From IMG/VR virus record IMGVR_UViG_3300047667_000558, positions 2,278 to 66,277 of that record: a stretch of DNA of 64,000 nt, one strand, 5' to 3'. Below are positions 3,908-14,500 of this stretch, piece by piece. Below the pieces are notes generated by a model. It was not told the DNA's origin, searched no databases, and was given only the letters and a program-made list of their open reading frames with translations. Origin of the DNA: a virus. A program made the position numbers and the translations under genes. Each line of letters starts with the position of its first letter. The stretch's first letter is position 1.

Positions 3908-6009
3908 TGACCTATTTACCCAACGCCCTAAATGTATACGAGACCTATACATACAATCTCAAATTGTATATGATTAAACCTGAAAACACGCCACAAATGG
4001 AAAAAAACCTTCCGCAGTTCGGTGGTAATGCAGCATTAATCATAGATAACGCTGGTGTTGCGGATTACAATATTAACAACCTCGAACAGCAGTATGTTGT
4101 AGGGCACAACAGGGTGCGAAACACGTTCGTAAATAGATTCACAATACAAGTGGCCGAAGCAAATGGTGTTACGCTATTGGATACTATTCGGCGCAACGCT
4201 GCCGCAATGGGAATTGTAGATCACAAGCAGGCGGTATATATATTAGTAATAGAATTTAATGGCCGAAAGTCTGACGGATTGGCCCACAAGCACCCACAGG
4301 TATTTTATTATCCAATCAAGATCACAGATTTCCAATTTAAGGTTGACGAAGGTGGTACAAATTATAGCATCACTGCAATTGAAAACTCAACCAGTGCTTA
4401 TAATTATTTGAGCAACGTAATCAAAAATCAGGTGACAATTTTAGCTAGTACGGTCGGTGAGTTTTTCACGGAATTTGTCAAGTTGGCTAACCGATCTGCT
4501 GAAGATGCCATCGTGTATTCAGTTGATCAATTGTTTGCTGACACCTTTGATATCACATTCGACGATTCAATCGGTGACTGGAAGAATTGGCAATTTCAAG
4601 CAATTACCGAAGAACAAACACACGACAATGTTAATATTATTTCAGCAGGCGTAGGTTCAGGCGACAGTTTATTACAAATAACTATTACTAACGGATCAAA
4701 CTTAACGGATATTGTCAATATTATATTGAGCCAAACAGCAGAATATAAACAGATTGTGCTAGAAGGTAGTGGCAATTCTGAATTTGCAAGACCGCACCCC
4801 AGTGATGATGTGACCACAGACTTGGCTCAGTTGCCAGTATTTCACAAGGTAGTGGCCGATGTGATATATGAGGACTATGACTGGTTACGAGGCGACTATA
4901 CCCGAAAATGTTATTACCGTGTTATTCCGTATATCAAGCCCGAACAAATATTAAGCCCAGAGCAATATGTTCGCGGCATCACCAATGCAGCTATTCAGGC
5001 TCGCAGAGTGCAGGCGTTAAAAGACAGAGGATTATTACGTAAAAAATATGATTACATTTTTACAGGTGGCAACACAGAGGTATTAGAATTTGATATTTCA
5101 ATTGATTACGCATATTACCACACCACACCTTATGGTGGTGGTATGCTTGGCAACGCAAATATAACGGCACCGACGCAGGCCGGAGCAAATGACAGTCCAT
5201 TAGGCGTACTAATTGATAACATATCACAACTGAAATCCCAAATATCAGAATTAGGAAGGTCACAGCGAAGCGCTGAAAACCGAATCACACTTAGCCAGCC
5301 CGGTCCATTTGGGGAACAAAATCGCAATTCTGATGCCGCCACTGTTGCAAACACAACTGCTCAGATACAGGGATTTGCCACGGATGTCCGACGAGAAGCC
5401 GCAGCACTCGGAATACTACTGCAGGAATCTGGCATGACAGGCAGCGAAGTTGCAATGGCTCTACGGTTTGCACAAGACGTTATCAGTGACGGAGACACAG
5501 CAGGCAGTGATAACGATAATACTGGTGGACACTTAAAGTTTGGTGCATTGGTAGCCAATATTGAAAACCAAGCCGACCTAATGACCATTGAACTAGGCAT
5601 TCGCGGTGACCCATATTGGTTAGGGAAACCTAACAGTTTTTATGATACCGCGCTAAAAAACGGCGAAAATCTTGCTGACTTTGAGCGAGGATCAAACGGA
5701 TTTTATCTTAAATGTTCGTTGCCATATCCGTTTGAAGATGCAGACGGTAGACGCAAGCCCAATGTAGAATATGAAATTAGTGGATTTTATACGGTAATAG
5801 ACGTGATTACCCGTTATACAGGTGGACAGTTTACCATGTATTTGAACGCGGTCCGTGACTTAGGAACAAATACCCCAACGGCACAGGACATATTGGACAA
5901 CTTGCCGAACTATAGTCCACCTGGCGTAGATTCAACTACGACTAATCAACAAGTTGATGCAGCAGCATTAGCCGCTCTTTTCCAACCGCTCCAGTCAGGG
6001 ATCGCATAA
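3907..6009 (+). CDS. Baseplate hub protein (gp27/VgrG N-terminal-like)
   Basis: N-terminal NALNVYETYTYNLKLY; C-terminal IRGDPYW and SGFYTVIDV...GGQFT; immediately upstream of gp5. Confidence 0.65.
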   Translation: MTYLPNALNVYETYTYNLKLYMIKPENTPQMEKNLPQFGGNAALIIDNAGVADYNINNLEQQYVVGHNRVRNTFVNRFTIQVAEANGVTLLDTIRRNAAAMGIVDHKQAVYILVIEFNGRKSDGLAHKHPQVFYYPIKITDFQFKVDEGGTNYSITAIENSTSAYNYLSNVIKNQVTILASTVGEFFTEFVKLANRSAEDAIVYSVDQLFADTFDITFDDSIGDWKNWQFQAITEEQTHDNVNIISAGVGSGDSLLQITITNGSNLTDIVNIILSQTAEYKQIVLEGSGNSEFARPHPSDDVTTDLAQLPVFHKVVADVIYEDYDWLRGDYTRKCYYRVIPYIKPEQILSPEQYVRGITNAAIQARRVQALKDRGLLRKKYDYIFTGGNTEVLEFDISIDYAYYHTTPYGGGMLGNANITAPTQAGANDSPLGVLIDNISQLKSQISELGRSQRSAENRITLSQPGPFGEQNRNSDAATVANTTAQIQGFATDVRREAAALGILLQESGMTGSEVAMALRFAQDVISDGDTAGSDNDNTGGHLKFGALVANIENQADLMTIELGIRGDPYWLGKPNSFYDTALKNGENLADFERGSNGFYLKCSLPYPFEDADGRRKPNVEYEISGFYTVIDVITRYTGGQFTMYLNAVRDLGTNTPTAQDILDNLPNYSPPGVDSTTTNQQVDAAALAALFQPLQSGIA

Positions 6010-6024
6010 CACAGGAAGTAATTA

Positions 6025-7767
6025 ATGTCAAAAGATAGAAGCTCAGATACCTATAGCCGCAAGGTCCGTGAGGCATATAATCAAAATACCATGTCCAAGG
6101 GGATCAAAATTCCGTCTGGCGTTTACCGTGGAATTGTGGTTAATAATCAAGACCCTGTCAAAAAAGGCCGGATCAGAGTACAGATTATGAAATTCTATGG
6201 AACAGCCGTTGTTGGCTCTGATGCAGATGCAACCAACAACTCTGATGGCAGTGAATGGGTGGGTGCAATGTGGTGCCGCCAAATGCTGCCAACAGGTGGA
6301 ACGACTGTACCAGAAGGCGAGGCAGGCTCGGTAGGACAAACTACATACGGTGCATTTGGTCCGCCGCCCAGTCTAGGCAATGAGGTATTAGTCGCCTTTG
6401 GTGGTGATATGCACAGTGGTATTGTTATCGGGGTATTGCCCGATATTGACAGAAGTGACGGCATTGCTGGCGCTGGCATCCAGCGTGAAACCACCGCTGG
6501 AAACACAATGTCACTAGAAACCCCTAAGACTGCTAACTCGGCAGACGCTACGCCATCACCACATCCACAAAACGCCGCATTGATAAACCAAGGGATACAA
6601 GACGATCTCGTGCGGGGCCAAAACACCAGTTCCCCCGCACGCGATCCAAGTTCGCGAGTTGGTGGTATGAGCAGCCCAGCAGGACATTCTATTGTCATGG
6701 ACGATGGTAGCTTGGAAGACGGACAGGGGTTGCGTATGCGGCTACGAACTGCGGGTGGTGCACAAATTCTTATGGATGATACGCTAGGGTTAACCTACAT
6801 CAACAACCGTGAAGGCAATGTTTGGATTGAATTAAATCGCAATGGCGATATGGACATCTATGCAGGTGGTAGTATCAATTATCATGCTGAAAATGACTTC
6901 AACGTACATTGTGGTGGAAATTTTAATGTACAATCTGGCGGCGACATTAATATGAAATCACTAGGCGCACAAGGAATAAAAATGGAGGCGGCAAGAGGCA
7001 GTTTCAATATGAAATGTGCAGCCAACATGAATTTACAAGCTGACGCAAACGGTAATATTCGGGTCGCAGGCAACTACCGTGAAACTGCTGGCCGCATCGA
7101 TATGAATGGCCCAGCAGCAGCCGCCGCAGCAACCCCATCCATTGTCCAGCATGCAGGCAACACAAACATAACTGAAAGCGTGTCGACACGTGTACCAGAG
7201 CATGAACCATGGGCAGGCCACTTAGACGTGTCTACGCGACCATCGGGCACAACAAGTAGTGATACTACATACTATGGTGCTCCGGTCGATGTGGAAAGTT
7301 TCGACGGCCAAACGGGTAGCTTGTCATTTAATGACTTTTCCAGAGTAACATTACCACCAAATTCACGATTGTCCTTCCAATCAGGCGTCGATACTCGTGT
7401 CGATCCGGCACTCATTACCACTATGGAAGAAGTCGCCCGCCAATTTGGTCGCTCGTTAGTTATTTCCAGTGGTGCACGTGATCCAACTAGAAATGAAACT
7501 GCTGGCGGCGCAACAAACTCACAGCATCTTCTTGGCCATGCAGTCGACGTATCCGGCGCAGCACTTTCAAATGCTGACCGAATTTCACTGGTTAAAATTG
7601 CAAGTACGATAGGCATACGCGGCATCGGGGTATACTCAGGTGGCGGCATGCACTTTGATAATCGAACAGGCGCAAGAGCAGGATGGGGCAATAATTACTC
7701 TTATACATCATTGGCAGCATATGTCGCACCAACAGTAAACAAACACCGCGCAGGAGGATTTTCATAA
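6025..7767 (+). CDS. gp5: Baseplate central spike (gp5-like) with C-terminal peptidase M15 domain
   Basis: OB fold (GIVVNNQDPVKKGRIRV, PPSLGNEVLV), GHSIVMDD, beta-helix repeats and PEHEPW. The C-terminal SGARDP..N...GGA.NSQHL.G.AVD...GIGVY...HFD matches a Zn peptidase of the M15 family. Confidence 0.85.
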   Translation: MSKDRSSDTYSRKVREAYNQNTMSKGIKIPSGVYRGIVVNNQDPVKKGRIRVQIMKFYGTAVVGSDADATNNSDGSEWVGAMWCRQMLPTGGTTVPEGEAGSVGQTTYGAFGPPPSLGNEVLVAFGGDMHSGIVIGVLPDIDRSDGIAGAGIQRETTAGNTMSLETPKTANSADATPSPHPQNAALINQGIQDDLVRGQNTSSPARDPSSRVGGMSSPAGHSIVMDDGSLEDGQGLRMRLRTAGGAQILMDDTLGLTYINNREGNVWIELNRNGDMDIYAGGSINYHAENDFNVHCGGNFNVQSGGDINMKSLGAQGIKMEAARGSFNMKCAANMNLQADANGNIRVAGNYRETAGRIDMNGPAAAAAATPSIVQHAGNTNITESVSTRVPEHEPWAGHLDVSTRPSGTTSSDTTYYGAPVDVESFDGQTGSLSFNDFSRVTLPPNSRLSFQSGVDTRVDPALITTMEEVARQFGRSLVISSGARDPTRNETAGGATNSQHLLGHAVDVSGAALSNADRISLVKIASTIGIRGIGVYSGGGMHFDNRTGARAGWGNNYSYTSLAAYVAPTVNKHRAGGFS

Positions 7768-8480
7768 TGTTAACTATAGTTGCAGCCCAATACCGCATAC
7801 AATGGGAAACCTTTACCGTACAAAATGCATTTGCAGTTGACTATCGTTATCCGGTACGTAGGGCAACTGTGAGTGACGGAATGAAAGACCTGATACTTAG
7901 CCGCCGCACATGGTCAGGCGTCCGTAAAAAAGACCCTACAACAGGAAAATATGTCATCGGATATGGCGTAGGTGATCCCGACGACGTACAAGGGTATACT
8001 GAATCGCAGGCATACGCGGAATGGGTTGGTGACTTGCGTAATCGTCAGAAACGTCTTATTGCACAGTTGCCAATATTATATGTCACACAAACAATATTTG
8101 ACGCACTACTAAGTCTGTATATTGACACTGGTACATGGAGAACTGTGCAAGCAGAAGAAGGCACGTATGATCTCGCCACGTCCGTAAAAGATGGGAATTG
8201 GTTATTAGCTGCGGATATTATATCACGAGGCAAAATCAATAATGATCTGCGGAAAAAAGAAGCACGGGCGATGCGATTAGGTGACTATAGTTTTACTAAA
8301 ACGCGCAATCAACAAGTTGCTCAAGGCGTGCAACTATTGCGCACACAATACGTAGCGGGAATTGCCAATGAATTTGATAAAAAGCAAACAGAATTTGTAT
8401 ACTATCGACAGTTTGGTACATTTTTGCCAGGAATGACACAATTGCGGCAACGCAGAGTAATTGCACAAGCTAGAACTTAA
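7767..8480 (+). CDS. Baseplate-associated lysozyme-fold (GH24-like) protein, probably catalytically degenerate
   Basis: KD...GKYVIGYG, TQ..FDALLSL and L..R.KEA-like motifs of phage lysozymes. The expected E-G catalytic position reads RTWSG. Confidence 0.55.
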   Translation: MLTIVAAQYRIQWETFTVQNAFAVDYRYPVRRATVSDGMKDLILSRRTWSGVRKKDPTTGKYVIGYGVGDPDDVQGYTESQAYAEWVGDLRNRQKRLIAQLPILYVTQTIFDALLSLYIDTGTWRTVQAEEGTYDLATSVKDGNWLLAADIISRGKINNDLRKKEARAMRLGDYSFTKTRNQQVAQGVQLLRTQYVAGIANEFDKKQTEFVYYRQFGTFLPGMTQLRQRRVIAQART

Positions 8481-8770
8481 CCATATTTTAGCTTCATCAT
8501 GACTTTTCCTCCGTCAGAAATTTCTGTATTTTCTTCCAGCCATTCATCAAACGTATAAAATCGACGACCGTTCAAATACCATTGCTTGTTACCATCTGCC
8601 TCTTCAATAGCTGGCCCGTCAGTGCGGTGAATTCTGTCGTTCAACCACCAATAGTTGTCACCATCCGCCCATTCAGCGGCAGGTCCGTCTGTACGGTGGT
8701 AGTCGCCGTTCATCGTCCAAAATTTGTTGCCTGTGCTATCCGTAGTCATTATTGGCGTTGTATCAACCAT
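8477..8770 (-). CDS. HRxDGPA-repeat (MORN-like) protein, paralogue A
   Basis: Two 23-aa HRTDGPA.E.ADG.K.W repeats plus the C-terminal cap FDEWL...KVMMKLKYG. Confidence 0.85.
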   Translation of the reverse strand: MVDTTPIMTTDSTGNKFWTMNGDYHRTDGPAAEWADGDNYWWLNDRIHRTDGPAIEEADGNKQWYLNGRRFYTFDEWLEENTEISDGGKVMMKLKYG

Positions 8771-9059
8771 ATTGTAACTTTAACATAACTTTATCTTCCT
8801 CAGTTAATGCGCAATTTTGATCAAGCCATTCATCAAACGTATAATGATTGCCATGTAACCACCATTCCTTGTTGCCATTTGCCGATTCAATAGCGGGTCC
8901 GTCAACTCGGTGAATTCTGTCGTTCAACCACCAATATTTGTCGCCATCCGCCCATTCAGCGGCAGGTCCGTCTGTACGGTGGTAGCCGCGATTCATCGTC
9001 CAAAATTTGTTGCCTGTGCTATCCGTAGTCATTATTGGCGTTGTATCATCCATATTGTA
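8625..9059. repeat. ~152-bp direct repeat (8625-8776 and 8908-9059) covering the 5' halves of paralogues A and B
   Basis: Visual alignment gives about 6 mismatches in 152 nt; offset 283 nt. Confidence 0.9.
8763..9053 (-). CDS. HRxDGPA-repeat protein, paralogue B
   Basis: Two repeats plus the cap ending KVMLKLQYG; 8-bp overlaps with both neighbours. Confidence 0.85.
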   Translation of the reverse strand: MDDTTPIMTTDSTGNKFWTMNRGYHRTDGPAAEWADGDKYWWLNDRIHRVDGPAIESANGNKEWWLHGNHYTFDEWLDQNCALTEEDKVMLKLQYG

Positions 9060-9396
9060 GCTTCATCATGACTTTTTCTTCATCTGAAATTTCTGTATTT
9101 GCTTCCAGCCATTCTTCAAACGTATAGTATCTGCCGCGCAATCGGAATTCTACATACCCATCAGCAAATTCAACCGCAGGACCATCTGTTCGGTGAGTGC
9201 TGCCGTATTGGCACCAAAATCTGCCACCATCTGCGCATTCAATAGCAGGACCGTCAGTGCGATGATTTTCCCCATTCAACCGCCATATCTTGTCGCCATC
9301 CGCCCATTCAGCGGCAGGCCCATCTTCGCGATGCAGTCGACCATGCAATCGCCAAAATTTGTTGCCCTTCCGATCTATTTCCATCTTTGGTTCCAT
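9046..9396 (-). CDS. HRxDGPA-repeat protein, paralogue C
   Basis: Three repeats plus the cap ending KVMMKLQYG. Confidence 0.85.
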   Translation of the reverse strand: MEPKMEIDRKGNKFWRLHGRLHREDGPAAEWADGDKIWRLNGENHRTDGPAIECADGGRFWCQYGSTHRTDGPAVEFADGYVEFRLRGRYYTFEEWLEANTEISDEEKVMMKLQYG

Positions 9397-10238
9397 TATG
9401 CGACCATCGCTTTGGCTGGCCGCTTGAAGAACCCGTACTTGGGATCATTGTCGGATACTGTGATCGTTGCGGTAAAGATAACCTGTTGGCCTTTTTTAAC
9501 TTCAGCAAGAGCCTTTGGGACTGTGCCCCATACTTTCCATCCTTCGGCATGCTGAACCAGCATCTTAGTCACATAACCAAACTCTGTTTCCTGTCCTTTC
9601 AGGGTGAGTACAGCGCCCGTCACGACCATACGGCCTTCTACAGGGATAGGCAACGCTGCTGCCACCTCTGCGGCCCGCTGTTCGGCAATCTGTGCACGAT
9701 CCACGATCCGGCCAAGAAGATTGCCAATGAATGATTTTTGCTTATCCGATATACTACCATACTGGACCAACTTACGAACAATGTCGTAGATGGTGTTTTC
9801 TTCCCACTTTGGGTCGAAGTCAAGTCCGCCATCATAGATGGCCCATGCGGCAGTCAAGTTGGCGTTCTCAAGGAAAACTTGTGCCTTCCGCTTACCCGCT
9901 GCGGCGTCAATACCTTTCTTGGCTTTAACACGGAAGCTGCGGAAATTAAGTGCATCACCCTCATGCAACTTTTCAGCACAATCTTCACCAGTCTGGACAT
10001 AAGTGTTGCTTGGAACATGGTGAAAGCGAGCAACAGTCATTGCATGTGCGCCGCAAACGTGGCACGAGCCGCCGTGGTTATGACGGGAGAACTTGCCACC
10101 TGTCTTAGCCATGTGAGTGCGAAATTGCTCTTGCTCAATAAGGTTGACTACATAATCGTCATGATGACTGTGGAACGATACGAACTGATAATCGTCAGGA
10201 TTAATAACGCTAGGGCGGTGAATGTCAGTGCGTGTCAT
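9396..10238 (-). CDS. Hypothetical protein with a putative Zn site (CHVCG...C) and a predicted C-terminal OB-like domain
   Basis: 280-aa ORF with an AAAGGA RBS and its own sigma70 promoter; fold assignment is inferred. Confidence 0.75.
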   Translation of the reverse strand: MTRTDIHRPSVINPDDYQFVSFHSHHDDYVVNLIEQEQFRTHMAKTGGKFSRHNHGGSCHVCGAHAMTVARFHHVPSNTYVQTGEDCAEKLHEGDALNFRSFRVKAKKGIDAAAGKRKAQVFLENANLTAAWAIYDGGLDFDPKWEENTIYDIVRKLVQYGSISDKQKSFIGNLLGRIVDRAQIAEQRAAEVAAALPIPVEGRMVVTGAVLTLKGQETEFGYVTKMLVQHAEGWKVWGTVPKALAEVKKGQQVIFTATITVSDNDPKYGFFKRPAKAMVA

Positions 10239-10266
10239 GTCATGTTTCCTTTTTGCTTACTTGTTC

Positions 10267-10295
10267 TTTATAGCAGCAAGGCGCTATGGTGTCAA
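10267..10295 (-). promoter_or_regulatory. sigma70-type (early) promoter
   Basis: Minus strand TTGACA-17 nt-TATAAA. The -35 is formed by the last codons and stop of paralogue D (GGT TGA CA). Confidence 0.75.
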
Positions 10296-10573
10296 CCATA
10301 TTGTAGCTTAAACATGATCTTTTCTTCGTCAGTCATATCTGGGTTGTTATCAAGCCACGTTTCAAATGGCATACCAATGTCATCCAAAAACCACCATTTA
10401 TCCCCATTTATCCATTCAATAGCAGGACCATCTGTGCGGTGACGGTTTCCGTTTAAATACCATTCTTTATGCCCATCTGCATGTATCATGGCAGGGCCAT
10501 CTTCGCGGTGAAGTTTGCTGTCCAACTTCCAAACTTTGACACCAGACGCATATTCGAATATGCCTGTCTTCAT
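10292..10573 (-). CDS. HRxDGPA-repeat protein, paralogue D
   Basis: Two repeats plus the cap ending KIMFKLQYG. Confidence 0.85.
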   Translation of the reverse strand: MKTGIFEYASGVKVWKLDSKLHREDGPAMIHADGHKEWYLNGNRHRTDGPAIEWINGDKWWFLDDIGMPFETWLDNNPDMTDEEKIMFKLQYG

Positions 10574-10803
10574 TATCCATATTCCAATTTATACATCACT
10601 TTTTCTCCGTCAGTCATATGTGGGTGTTGATCAAGCCATTCTTCAAATAAATAGGGTATGCCAAACAAATACCACTCCTTGTTGTCCTTCCCAGTCGCCC
10701 ACTCAATGGCAGGACCATCTTCGCGGTGAAGTCTGGCGTTCAACTTCCAAAATTTGTCACCATACTTATTTACAGTAATCACAGGTTGCACATCTTTATC
10801 CAT
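10573..10803 (-). CDS. HRxDGPA-repeat protein, paralogue E
   Basis: One repeat plus the cap ending KVMYKLEYG. Confidence 0.8.
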   Translation of the reverse strand: MDKDVQPVITVNKYGDKFWKLNARLHREDGPAIEWATGKDNKEWYLFGIPYLFEEWLDQHPHMTDGEKVMYKLEYG

Positions 10804-11095
10804 ATTCCAATTTATACATGACCTTTTCTTCGTCGGTCAATTCTTGATTTTTGTCGAGCCATTCGTCAAACGTATAACGACCGTCGTTTAGATACCAACT
10901 CTTGGCACCATATGCATATTCAATTGCAGGTCCATCAGTTCGGTGAAGTCTGCCGTCAATCCACCATTCCTTGCGGCCACTCACCAATTCAACAGCGGGT
11001 CCGTCAATGCGGTGAAGTCTGATGAAATTATTGCGCCACCACCTGTCGCCCGCGCCTGTCTCCGTCATTACAGATTGCATATCACTCTCAGCCAT
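10796..11095 (-). CDS. HRxDGPA-repeat protein, paralogue F
   Basis: Two repeats plus the cap ending KVMYKLEYG. Start MAESD (11095) follows an AAAGGA RBS and the promoter. Confidence 0.85.
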   Translation of the reverse strand: MAESDMQSVMTETGAGDRWWRNNFIRLHRIDGPAVELVSGRKEWWIDGRLHRTDGPAIEYAYGAKSWYLNDGRYTFDEWLDKNQELTDEEKVMYKLEYG

Positions 11096-11114
11096 TGTAT
11101 ATCCTTTGTCGTTA

Positions 11115-11143
11115 ATTATAAGGTACATTATCTGTATTGTCAA
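11115..11143 (-). promoter_or_regulatory. sigma70-type (early) promoter of the HRxDGPA island
   Basis: Minus strand TTGACA-17 nt-TATAAT, perfect consensus. Confidence 0.85.
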
Positions 11144-11166
11144 TACCAAAAGGCACTTTTCAGTCA

Positions 11167-11174
11167 CATAAATA
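11167..11174 (+). promoter_or_regulatory. Putative late promoter (CATAAATA) restarting the baseplate operon
   Basis: TAAATA ends 5 nt before the gp25 ATG. Confidence 0.65.
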
Positions 11175-11179
11175 ACAGT

Positions 11180-11545
11180 ATGGTAACATTTGTAGGCTTC
11201 TCAACATACGGAAAAAGAACAGGAACCAATGTCCTAGAAGATAAGGACTTGGCAATTCGTGATCTATTAAATCATTTTTACACCCGCCGTGGTGAGCGGT
11301 TAGGAGAGCCGTCGTTTGGCAGCATCCTACCAGAATTGATATTTGAGCAGTTAGACCAATTAGTAATTGACACCGCAGATGAAGACGTCCGCACAATTAT
11401 TGATTTGGACCCTAGATGGCGACTGATAGATTATGAAATTGACGCAATCGGGCACGCATTGACTATCAAGATTCAACTAAGTTATGTTCCCGACTTGAGT
11501 CAAGAACAATTGGTATTAAAATACACTAGCACAGAAGAGATTTAA
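11180..11545 (+). CDS. gp25: Baseplate wedge subunit, gp25-like
   Basis: DLLNHFYTRRGERLGEPSFGS..ELIFE motif. Start MVTFVGFST at 11180; the longer track ORF overlaps the antisense gene. Confidence 0.9.
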   Translation: MVTFVGFSTYGKRTGTNVLEDKDLAIRDLLNHFYTRRGERLGEPSFGSILPELIFEQLDQLVIDTADEDVRTIIDLDPRWRLIDYEIDAIGHALTIKIQLSYVPDLSQEQLVLKYTSTEEI

Positions 11546-11548
11546 CAC

Positions 11549-14500
11549 ATGGCACAAAGCATCCGACAAAGAAATCTGTTCGCAGCAGAAGATTACAGAG
11601 TAGTTTACGATAGTTTCAAGCAGGCGAATTTCCAAGCCTATGATTATGACACCATCCGTGGTGCATTGGTAGATTATATCCAGCAACAATATCCTGAAAA
11701 CTTCAATGACTGGATTCAAAGTTCTGAATTTGTGGCGCTGATTGAAACACTGTCGTTTCTCGCACACTCATTAGCCTTCAGAATTGACCAAACAGGTCGC
11801 GAAAACTTCTTGAGCACAGCCGAACGCCGCGCGAGCGTTTTGCGTATTGCTGACTTTTTAGGATACACTCCAAGCCGTCACCAGCCTGCGCGAGGTCAAC
11901 TCAAGGTAACTGGCATCCGTACCACACAAGACGTGTACGACATCAATGGACGTACCCTTAAGAATACTACCGTCGACTTCGAAGATAACTACCAGAATTT
12001 CTTGCTTATTATGAATGAAGTTCTAGGCAATGTCAACAAATTTGGCCGACCAACCGATACGTCGCGCATCGGTAACATCAAGCATGACATTTATGCGACA
12101 AGCATTGAAGCTGGTCACAATGTGGTGTTTGGTGTCCAAGGCAAGGTAAATGGCAATAGTGGTAACTTTGAAATTCATGGATTAGAAATCGACAATTCTT
12201 CCAACGTATTACTCGAAACCGCCCCAGACCAAAATAAAAGTTTTGACATTGTTTATAAGAATGATGGACAAGGCATCGGCAGTGAAGACACTGGTTTTTT
12301 CGTTGGGTTCAAGCAAGGTAATTTACAATTCACCGACGTCAACGCCACAACCGCTATTTCCAACTTGGTGGTTGACTTATCAGCCACCAATGTCAATAAC
12401 AGCGACATCTGGGTTCAGGAAATTAACACTGCTGGTGAAATCCAAGACACATGGACAAAGATTGATAGTGGGTTTGGAGCAAACACAGTATTTAATAACA
12501 TTCGCCAAGACAATCGCAAGCTATACACAGTCAAAACAATGGACCAAGACAACGTCAATATTCAATTTGGTGACGGAGTATTCAGCGACATTCCTCGTGG
12601 CATCATTCGTATTTGGTATCGCACAGGTGTAAACCAAACATACACCCTTGATACAGACGACATCGGCATTGTAACATTCGGATATACCTACACTGTTAGT
12701 CAAGACACTGGATCAGATAATACGCACAAGGTGACGTTTACGTGTGAACTTCAATCACCTGTAACTAATGCATCTTCACAGGAAAGTGTGACTAGTATTA
12801 AAAATAATGCTGGCCGAGTATTTGCTACACAAGACCGTATGATTACAGCCAGTGATTATTCAATTTACCCGCTGACGGTCAGTGAAAACGTTAATAAAAT
12901 TAAAGCGGTCAATCGTACATATAATGGACACAGTCGTTTTATCAAGCCACAAGACCCGACGGGCACATACCAGAACGTTGACATGCTCGCGGACGATGGC
13001 TACATTTACAGCGAAGGCATTACGTACAGGTCAAATCTTGCGTTACCGTCTACCCTAACGTCTGAACAAATATATGAACGCTTCATTGCAGACTTAATTG
13101 AAAATCCTGAAATTGTCAATTTATTCTATACCAAATATGACGTAACTGAGATTGACTTTTCGACATCAGTGGGTAGCTATGAGTGGCAGCAGATCACGTC
13201 AGGATACCGTGGTAGTACAGGTTATTTGACACTTAATAGTGAAATTCAAAAAGCTGGCAAAAACGCAACTAATGACTTAGTCACGGCTGCTCCAGGATCA
13301 ATTGTAGAATTTATTGAAACACCATATAATGCAGGTACATTAGGCGTGATCGGCCAAACATTAAGTATCATTAACGCAGGTAGTGGTTACACCAGTGCAC
13401 CAACTGTAACCGTACAGGGCACAGGCACGGGGGCTACGGCAACTGCAACTGTATCTGGTGGCCAACTTGCGGCCATCACGTTGACAAATGGTGGCACAGG
13501 CTATCAAAACCCTGTAGTTATAAGTATTTCTGGTGGCGGCGGCGCGGGCGCAGAAGTTGTGGCTGTGGCCACAACTGCTTCACGTAGTTGGGCTAGAGTA
13601 GTCGATATTGTGAACGACGGTCAAGGTATCAACGACAGCAACGGCAACCCAACGGGATTGTCTAGTCGTGGCCAAGGTGCAATAATTCTCAATAAGAGCA
13701 TCCCCAACACTGCTAGAATATCACAAATATTTCCCGCATATTCAACCGTGTTTACTGCCGATGAAAAAGTTGCCATTATTGACGAACTAGAAAAGTCAAA
13801 TACATTTGGGTTACGGTATGACACCACAACCCGTGAGTGGATAATCATACACGCGGGTGACTTGCCGTCGGAAAATTCAAATAGTCCTGATAATTTTAAC
13901 ATTTCTAATGCAGGCGACAACAGCAACAGTAATGCAGATCAATCATGGATCGTGCGGGTACAGTATACGGTTAATGCGTGGCGCTTCATCAGTCGCCGTA
14001 CACGATATGTGTTTGGCAGTAATGACCGCATCAGGTTCTTTAACCAAAATGGTAACCGCCGCTTTAATGTAGAGACCAATAAGCCTGACCGTGATCGTGT
14101 AGTTGTTTCCAAGATCAACACCATCCCAGGTGGCAGTGTGTATCCAATTGGCGAAGATTTGCCATTCTATACATATCGCTATTACACTGGGACAGATGGG
14201 TACACTGATGATCGTAAAGTTATTGTTACATTGGCCGACATTGACAACGACAACTATCCTGATAATCCGCTGGCATTCCGCACATTAGTTGATGCTGACA
14301 CCATCAATCTTGGCACCGTTTCAGAAGATGGTTATTCATATGTTGCACTTAGCGACGTTGGGACAGCGACTGCTGGCCGTCAAAATTTGACATTTGTATG
14401 GAAACGGATCAGTACCAGCGACTATAGAATTGACCCAAGCCTTTCAAACATTATTGATATCTTCGTTCTTAACCAAAATTATGATGCTAAATATCGTGAG

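Follow-up and report, generated by a model that had tools for sequence, protein, structure and literature searches.

A 64,000-nucleotide stretch of viral DNA, bases 2278-66277 of the 66,277-bp IMG/VR record IMGVR_UViG_3300047667_000558 and hereafter called the window, carries within its baseplate genes an island of six small minus-strand genes whose products are paralogues built on a 23-residue HRxDGPA repeat. This island, first described from the letters of the DNA and a list of their reading frames in what we call the original prediction, is confirmed with all six genes, their twelve repeat units and a common carboxyl-terminal cap; its make-up differs from that description by an unrelated seventh gene, coding for 280 residues (9396-10238), that also lies inside. 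The island sits as accessory cargo in a slot of the baseplate module that is hypervariable and divergently transcribed. By analogy with MORN modules we tentatively favour, with slightly less than even confidence, the view that its six proteins may form a set of early intracellular binders used for host takeover or counter-defence. The features of the island, its flanks and the other sigma70 sites discussed below are as follows.

11143-11115, minus strand: promoter P1, TTGACA-17-TATAAT, 12/12 matches to the sigma70 consensus, divergent from gp25
10796-11095, minus strand: g100, 99 residues from the ATG at 11095, two HRxDGPA units and the cap
10573-10803, minus strand: g76, 76 residues, one unit with a two-residue insertion and the cap
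10292-10573, minus strand: g93, 93 residues, two units and the cap
10295-10267, minus strand: promoter P2, TTGACA-17-TATAAA, 11/12 matches, its -35 element overlapping the YG-stop of g93
9396-10238, minus strand: p280, 280 residues, unrelated to the paralogues, with a Cys/His cluster, a helical middle and a carboxyl-terminal oligonucleotide/oligosaccharide-binding (OB) fold
9046-9396, minus strand: g116, 116 residues, three units and the cap, the sole paralogue above the DUF6745 cutoff
8763-9053, minus strand: g96, 96 residues, two units and the cap
8477-8770, minus strand: g97, 97 residues, two units and the cap
7767-8480, plus strand: left flank, lysozyme-like late gene, 237 residues, with a weak Phage_lysozyme match below the cutoff
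11168-11545, plus strand: right flank, gp25-like baseplate wedge gene with its ATG at 11180 (PHROG baseplate wedge, 1.4e-9) and ATAAATA at 11168-11174
2891-2863 and 1951-1923, minus strand: the other perfect sigma70 sites (12/12), left of the structural block
46705, plus strand: sigma70 site (11/12) heading the operon that follows the structural genes

An accessory island in the baseplate module

Seven minus-strand genes separate the lysozyme-like gene from gp25, six of them coding for the paralogues (76-116 residues) and one for p280. The listed frame of g100 starts at a GTG at 11167; the ATG at 11095 is preferred, with AAGGA 8 nt ahead of it and a position downstream of the promoter. Start and stop codons overlap by 8 nt (ATGGATAA type) in three pairs, g100/g76, g116/g96 and g96/g97, and by 1 nt in two others, g76/g93 and p280/g116. 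These overlaps therefore define two translationally coupled sets, of which g100-g76-g93 would be driven by P1 and p280-g116-g96-g97 by P2. At the other end of the island the stop of g97 overlaps that of the convergent lysozyme-like gene (8477-8480) and no terminator-like site is found in 7500-12000, so that early transcripts of the island would run antisense into this late gene. The original prediction had proposed a genome-wide count of the paralogues; the 66-kb record has no other family copy than these six genes, within which all 8 matched stretches fall.

The two sigma70 promoters that the prediction assigned to the island hold up, and sites of this quality are enriched over chance: 13 sites with at least 11/12 matches occur in the window, against 1.94 +/- 1.33 in shuffled sequences. 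All three perfect 12/12 sites are on the minus strand and each heads minus-strand units. Within the plus-strand structural block (2979-46700) the single plus-strand site of at least 11/12 is intragenic, and none in intergenic DNA heads a gene. Because consensus sigma70 promoters are present on the island and none heads the genes of the structural block, early transcription by the host RNA polymerase is a reasonable reading, and the island is probably transcribed early by the sigma70 form of that enzyme. A minus-strand sigma70-like site is also found at the place of P1 in relatives sharing the flanks of the island (L088, 9/12; L089, 11/12; L090, 10/12; 12/12 in the window). The motif ATAAATA, which precedes structural cassettes, is found 10 times on the plus strand versus 3 times on the minus strand and is missing from the coding strand of the island. 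Ahead of gp25 it is conserved, 5 nt from the ATG, in six of the six loci examined (the window, L088, L089, L090, L095 and L096). The start codon of gp25 is corrected to the ATG at 11180, and ATAAATA is the candidate for the late promoter that the prediction gave to this gene; it may be such a promoter, a reading left unproven by the shortness of the 5-nt leader.

The record has a CheckV completeness of 18%, which by simple arithmetic makes a whole genome of about 370 kb. Its gp6-like baseplate wedge protein shares 37-42% identity with those of phages Atu_ph07 (Agrobacterium), Munch and 7t3 (Salmonella), the PA5oct/MIJ3 type (Pseudomonas) and others, and the genome is therefore assigned to an uncultured jumbo myophage of the broad Rak2/PA5oct/Atu_ph07-like group. 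Nine IMG/VR contigs encode a lysozyme-like protein with 59-70% identity to that of the window. As far as these contigs extend, their genes follow one order, p213-p95-hub-gp5-lys237-[slot]-gp25-gp6-giant protein, and gp6 shows 74-86% identity. The content of the slot between lys237 and gp25 differs from one to the next.

L088: one unrelated minus-strand gene of 74 residues
L089: a 78-residue family gene (one degenerate HxDGPA unit, cap as in the window) and three unrelated small genes, all on the minus strand
L090: unrelated minus-strand genes of 130 and 50 residues
L091-L094: spacing as in L090, with near-identical flanks
L095: 36 nt between the flanking genes
L096, 4369-4703: about 330 nt with a minus-strand TTGACA inside

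A check across relatives, also put forward in the original prediction, thus returns one degenerate family gene among nine contigs that share the flanks. The L096 slot may be a remnant or may hold a very small gene. A plus-strand gene of L088 (7781-8488) codes for a GIY-YIG/NUMOD3 homing endonuclease (NUMOD3 E 2.3e-17) and sits between gp25 and gp6, beside the slot.

The position of the genes within the baseplate block could be read as that of virion or baseplate accessory proteins, or of proteins packed in the head and injected. We consider this very improbable. The island lies on the strand opposite to the structural genes under consensus sigma70 promoters, with no ATAAATA on its coding strand, and none of its paralogues matches a structural PHROG. 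Virion proteins would be expected to be conserved and co-transcribed with the structural module, whereas these genes run in the other direction and are absent or replaced in 8 of the 9 related contigs, L089 having its one degenerate copy.

Repeat, cap and predicted fold

The repeat follows the pattern HRxDGPAxExxxGxKxWxxxGxx, with 12 units distributed as 2, 2, 3, 2, 1 and 2 from g97 to g100, in which H, R, D, G, P, A and G13 are invariant. The six proteins, all acidic (isoelectric points of 4.5-5.2), align end to end with pairwise identities of 42-76%. They share a carboxyl-terminal cap, F-x-E/T-W-L...K-V/I-M-x-K-L-x-Y-G, whose F, W, L, K, M, K, L, Y and G do not vary in the alignment. The same design of fixed scaffold and changing positions, as claimed by the original prediction, recurs in 850 distinct units of the wider family, which has a period of 23 residues in 783 of the 838 spacings listed. 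There, H1 and G5 are conserved at 100%, R2 and A7 at 99%, W17 at 96%, G13 at 95%, D4 at 92% and E9 at 90%, and the most variable positions (16, 14, 23, 10 and 22) are those of the window. The "constant docking tail" of the prediction is constant within this window only. The window-type cap occurs in 6 of 277 distinct open reading frames (ORFs) of the IMG/VR loci and in 37 of 120 among the protein matches listed, which leads us to reject a universal cap; elsewhere the same repeats bear array-specific tails, many and unrelated. Recurring unrelated carboxyl-terminal modules are seen among the proteins listed, such as ...GK.V.IDGV.YKL.E and ...SIDRFLKPILSKGLNDLL.

AlphaFold2, run for g116 on a 28-sequence alignment, gives a model with a predicted local distance difference test score (pLDDT) of 97.1 and a predicted template modelling score (pTM) of 0.85, in which residues 1-91 fold as a hairpin meander of short strands and residues 93-99 and 105-115 as helices. 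The structure prediction called for by the original prediction thus yields a confident model, a single-layer beta-hairpin array closed by a two-helix cap. By extension, each paralogue would be a small, acidic and soluble protein composed of an amino-terminal capping hairpin, one to three MORN-like hairpin repeats of 23 residues and the two-helix carboxyl-terminal cap. Residues H1, R2, D4, G5, P6, A7, E9, G13 and W17 would hold this fold and positions 10, 14, 16, 22 and 23 would change freely. Foldseek against the PDB places mostly MORN proteins at the top (MORN4 with E 3.5e-3, three MORN1 structures, radial spoke proteins, junctophilin and SET7/9), and a PDB sequence search with the family profile gives 0 matches. 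The model is MORN-like in shape, homology to MORN being unproven. One of the six proteins passes the threshold of DUF6745 (PF20530), namely g116 (30.1 vs 27 bits), over profile positions 64-97 of 206.

Whole-gene ratios of nonsynonymous to synonymous substitution rates (dN/dS) among the paralogues are 0.26-0.49, with dS mostly above 1. Pooling 11 repeat units, the g76 unit being excluded for the insertion that breaks its register, the ratio of nonsynonymous to synonymous differences per site (pN/pS) is 0.12 at scaffold positions, 0.94 at the eleven variable positions and 1.06 at the hypervariable positions 10, 14, 16, 22 and 23, and it is 0.36 in the cap. The frame is strongly constrained and few positions are free, changing at about the synonymous rate. 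The diversifying selection proposed in the original prediction does not follow from this, a pN/pS of about 1.06 at saturated dS fitting neutral change as well as positive selection. The genes g97 and g96 agree in almost every one of the initial 50 codons and differ sharply beyond them; this abrupt end of identity points to recombination between copies, as in a gene-conversion mosaic. The copies may have arisen by in-register tandem duplication and such recombination.

Alternatively, the array could be close to neutral, left behind by unequal crossing-over in a gene rich in repeats and without any specific function, as would fit the g97/g96 mosaic, the near-synonymous rate at variable positions and a copy number that varies widely between genomes. 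We regard this as improbable, since all six frames remain intact at dS around or above 1 (except for the younger g97/g96 pair, dS 0.33), scaffold and cap are under the constraint given above, overlaps and promoters are kept, and the family is maintained across tens of thousands of clusters.

A family of phages and transferable elements

Searched against 1.84 billion representatives, a profile of the six proteins recovers 30,106 representative clusters with E <= 1e-3, or 16,462 under the stricter limit of 1e-10. A word-indexed search finds 2,284 proteins of 63-203 residues, and a protein identical to the 116-residue g116 is encoded on 34 contigs, the longest of 144,714 bp. The Atlas clusters closest to the six are 93-100% viral. 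In existing catalogues the family figures as a partial DUF6745 match with no function assigned. Our literature search found no description of it under DUF6745 or by motif strings, and searches pairing MORN with jumbo phage, paralogs or anti-defence terms gave nothing relevant among the papers listed. It ranks among the larger uncharacterised protein families of mobile elements and can account for tens of genes in one jumbo phage.

The 79 IMG/VR loci analysed yield 374 ORFs of the family, 280 of them distinct, and most lie in tandem on one strand; such arrays reach 19 genes in 10 kb (L021), with 15 (L075), 14 (L068) and 12 (L042) as further examples. Four other large viral records have 57, 36, 28 and 23 matched stretches. 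Pfam reveals no informative fused domain in 8 long multi-repeat relatives. Megablast of the island DNA against cultured phages gives no match, and tblastn hits 7 records including Celeribacter phage P12053L, Atu_ph07 and three huge uncultured phages. In the cultured phage P12053L the homologue, gp09, has an early-region setting, being encoded between ThyX/endonuclease genes and a primase gene; the family genes of Atu_ph07 are gp378/gp379.

Loci L021 and L024 are the two ends of one 203,774-bp viral contig (96% complete) that carries arrays at both ends and 57 stretches in total. This could mean that the arrays bridge the junction of a circularly permuted genome, or that the assembler stopped at them. 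Contigs from 4 sequencing runs tile the island with short pieces, and in one run 8 pieces, 7 of them mismatch-free, cover most of it. Many of the contig joints have short sides and, at 85% likeness, most likely come from other family members; we draw no copy-number inference from them. The family breaks short-read assemblies. MORN repeats are reported to be 37 times enriched in long-read marine viral data (PMC9238414). The window offers a small and clean example of such arrays, with two promoters, six copies, one cap type and island-free relatives.

Bacterial genomes, scanned at one per species, yield 264 confirmed stretches. Six loci chosen from 77, favouring long contigs or several copies, were examined, and five of them have genes for MobC/NikA, a relaxase, an orphan DNA methylase, ParA or a resolvase beside the family copies.

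L109, Janthinobacterium, 3947-9143: seven tandem genes between MobC/NikA-like and MobA/VirD2-like relaxase genes
L121, Duganella: a MobC/NikA-like gene and an orphan N6/N4 DNA methylase gene, with a 456-residue ORF without Pfam match at the relaxase position
L149, a second Janthinobacterium: MobC/NikA, relaxase and orphan N6/N4 DNA methylase genes nearby
L173, Acidovorax: MobC/NikA, relaxase and orphan N6/N4 DNA methylase genes nearby
L139, plasmid contig: methylase, ParA and resolvase genes around five copies
L114, actinobacterial: the copy adjoins a GmrSD restriction gene

Taken together with the early slot of the phage, this position next to plasmid transfer genes suggests a part in the establishment of the element in a newly entered cell. 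According to PMC11541004, the leading regions of plasmids have an excess of anti-defence, orphan methylase, SSB and uncharacterised genes; the text searched does not name the family.

Candidate roles and known counterparts

We tentatively favour the view that the paralogues would bind other proteins inside the infected cell, as suggested by analogy with MORN repeats, which are called protein-protein interaction modules (PMC7725318). Their targets would differ from one paralogue to the next, or be variants of a single target, and the set could serve host takeover or counter-defence. For the anti-defence decoys or adaptors of the original prediction the support is one of genomic context. If the role is counter-defence, the arrays would be a new and very common class of inhibitors with a designable scaffold.

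Several results weigh against the proposal of early intracellular binders. Foldseek gives no PDB match at E <= 1e-3, and the best VIA-align match is the unrelated CPAP G-box (Z 7.2) ahead of MORN4 (Z 6.0), all matches lying below the trust level of about Z 8. Hmmscan at E <= 0.1 finds neither MORN (PF02493) nor MORN_2 (PF07661) in the six proteins, so that the MORN-like relation raised in the original prediction survives weakly at the level of the fold and not in Pfam. The six have no match either in PADLOC (defence systems), NCBIfam (E <= 0.1) or PHROGs. With dS saturated, positive selection at the variable positions cannot be told from neutral change. Sigma70-like sites of at least 10/12 stand at 25 of 106 family array heads versus 94 of 1060 control windows; they are enriched, yet such promoters are rejected as a family-wide rule, and "early" is no rule for the family since these sites are uncommon at array heads. 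The 20 sequencing runs listed as containing the stretch, mostly labelled as ice metagenomes, are all of DNA, with RNA in 0/20. The 91.5-kb contig of the relative L095 has no family member at all, and the genes are therefore dispensable for the lineage. The bacterial association, finally, is no unbiased count because the six loci were hand-picked.

The proteins could instead be YwqK-like immunity proteins that bind and neutralise a toxin, either of a host abortive-infection system or of a competing phage or element. Like many binders, they are small, acidic and built of repeats; the Joint Genome Institute (JGI) label "antitoxin component YwqK" is attached to 2 of the 120 homologues listed, one homologue (P0002) has a precomputed MORN_2 match, and the actinobacterial copy of L114 is next to a restriction gene. 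We find this quite unlikely for the island, where no toxin gene is adjacent, the neighbours being paralogues, p280, the lysozyme-like gene and gp25, with no toxin domain among them. None of the six matches MORN_2 or NCBIfam, and six paralogues without a partner gene do not resemble a toxin-immunity pair.

Another possibility is that the paralogues act on the machinery of the phage itself, as adaptors or regulators of replication, transcription or assembly, perhaps together with p280, whose gene would share the P2 operon with three of them. The AlphaFold2 model of p280 (pLDDT 82.3) has a carboxyl-terminal OB fold that Foldseek relates to PriB/SSB (E 5.5e-4, probability 1.00). The protein has an invariant Cys/His cluster (C59, C62, H74 and C87) and, with 469 homologues, is part of a family of hypothetical proteins widespread in phages; it gives no Pfam match, its carboxyl terminus corresponds to three PHROGs of unknown function, and the 120 homologues listed bear no functional name ("hypothetical protein" or unnamed). 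Action on the phage machinery would also agree with the position of the P12053L homologue among DNA-metabolism genes and with the constancy of the cap inside one genome, which could reflect docking to a partner specific to the phage. We nevertheless judge it unlikely. No p280 homologue is found near family arrays in the 79 IMG/VR loci, a result that also makes us reject a linkage of p280 to the family. The island is missing from close relatives that keep the same core genes, and the family occurs on bacterial transferable elements sharing no phage machinery.

The proposal of early binders can be extended to the family as a whole, in a form that we find doubtful. HRxDGPA arrays would be a common binder library, carried by phages in early slots and by conjugative or mobilisable elements next to their relaxosome and orphan methylase genes, and would be used at cell entry. 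A rigid MORN-like scaffold would expose five surface positions (10, 14, 16, 22 and 23, whose surface face is deduced from strand alternation and not from coordinates) and would carry a swappable carboxyl-terminal module. Both would be reshuffled by unequal crossing-over, tracking host defence effectors. If this is true, the arrays would be a protein-level counterpart of the variable immune repertoires of their hosts.

Among known systems, MORN proteins (MORN4-Myo3a 6jle; MORN1 6t68/6t69/6t4d; junctophilin; the SET7/9 N-domain) have the 23-residue period of the paralogues and resemble their predicted model in glycine-rich hairpin repeats and an elongated single-layer beta sheet, and both groups include repeat-only proteins. 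The island motif, HRxDGPAxExxxGxKxW, departs from the MORN consensus, and the two-helix cap is specific to the island subfamily. DUF6745, a Pfam entry without known function, matches the repeat over positions 62-104 of its 206, or about one fifth of the profile, and many homologues have such precomputed matches. Antitoxin or immunity proteins of the YwqK type (MORN_2) are likewise small repeat-only binders; the island differs from them by six phage paralogues under early-type promoters, with no toxin gene beside them and no profile match.

Hyperplastic early regions of T4-like phages hold small genes with sigma70 promoters between conserved late modules and differ between close relatives. The island resembles these regions, and amplified anti-defence loci, in its small sigma70 genes, its tandem changes of copy number and the homing endonuclease gene beside the slot in L088. 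Gene amplification of anti-defence loci is reported in PMC13096335; the island itself shows no function or amplification event. Repeat families of giant viruses (ankyrin, MORN and others) are likewise reported to expand as the virus genome grows (PMC5753266); they belong to eukaryotic viruses, whereas the host of the island is bacterial and its genes are much smaller.

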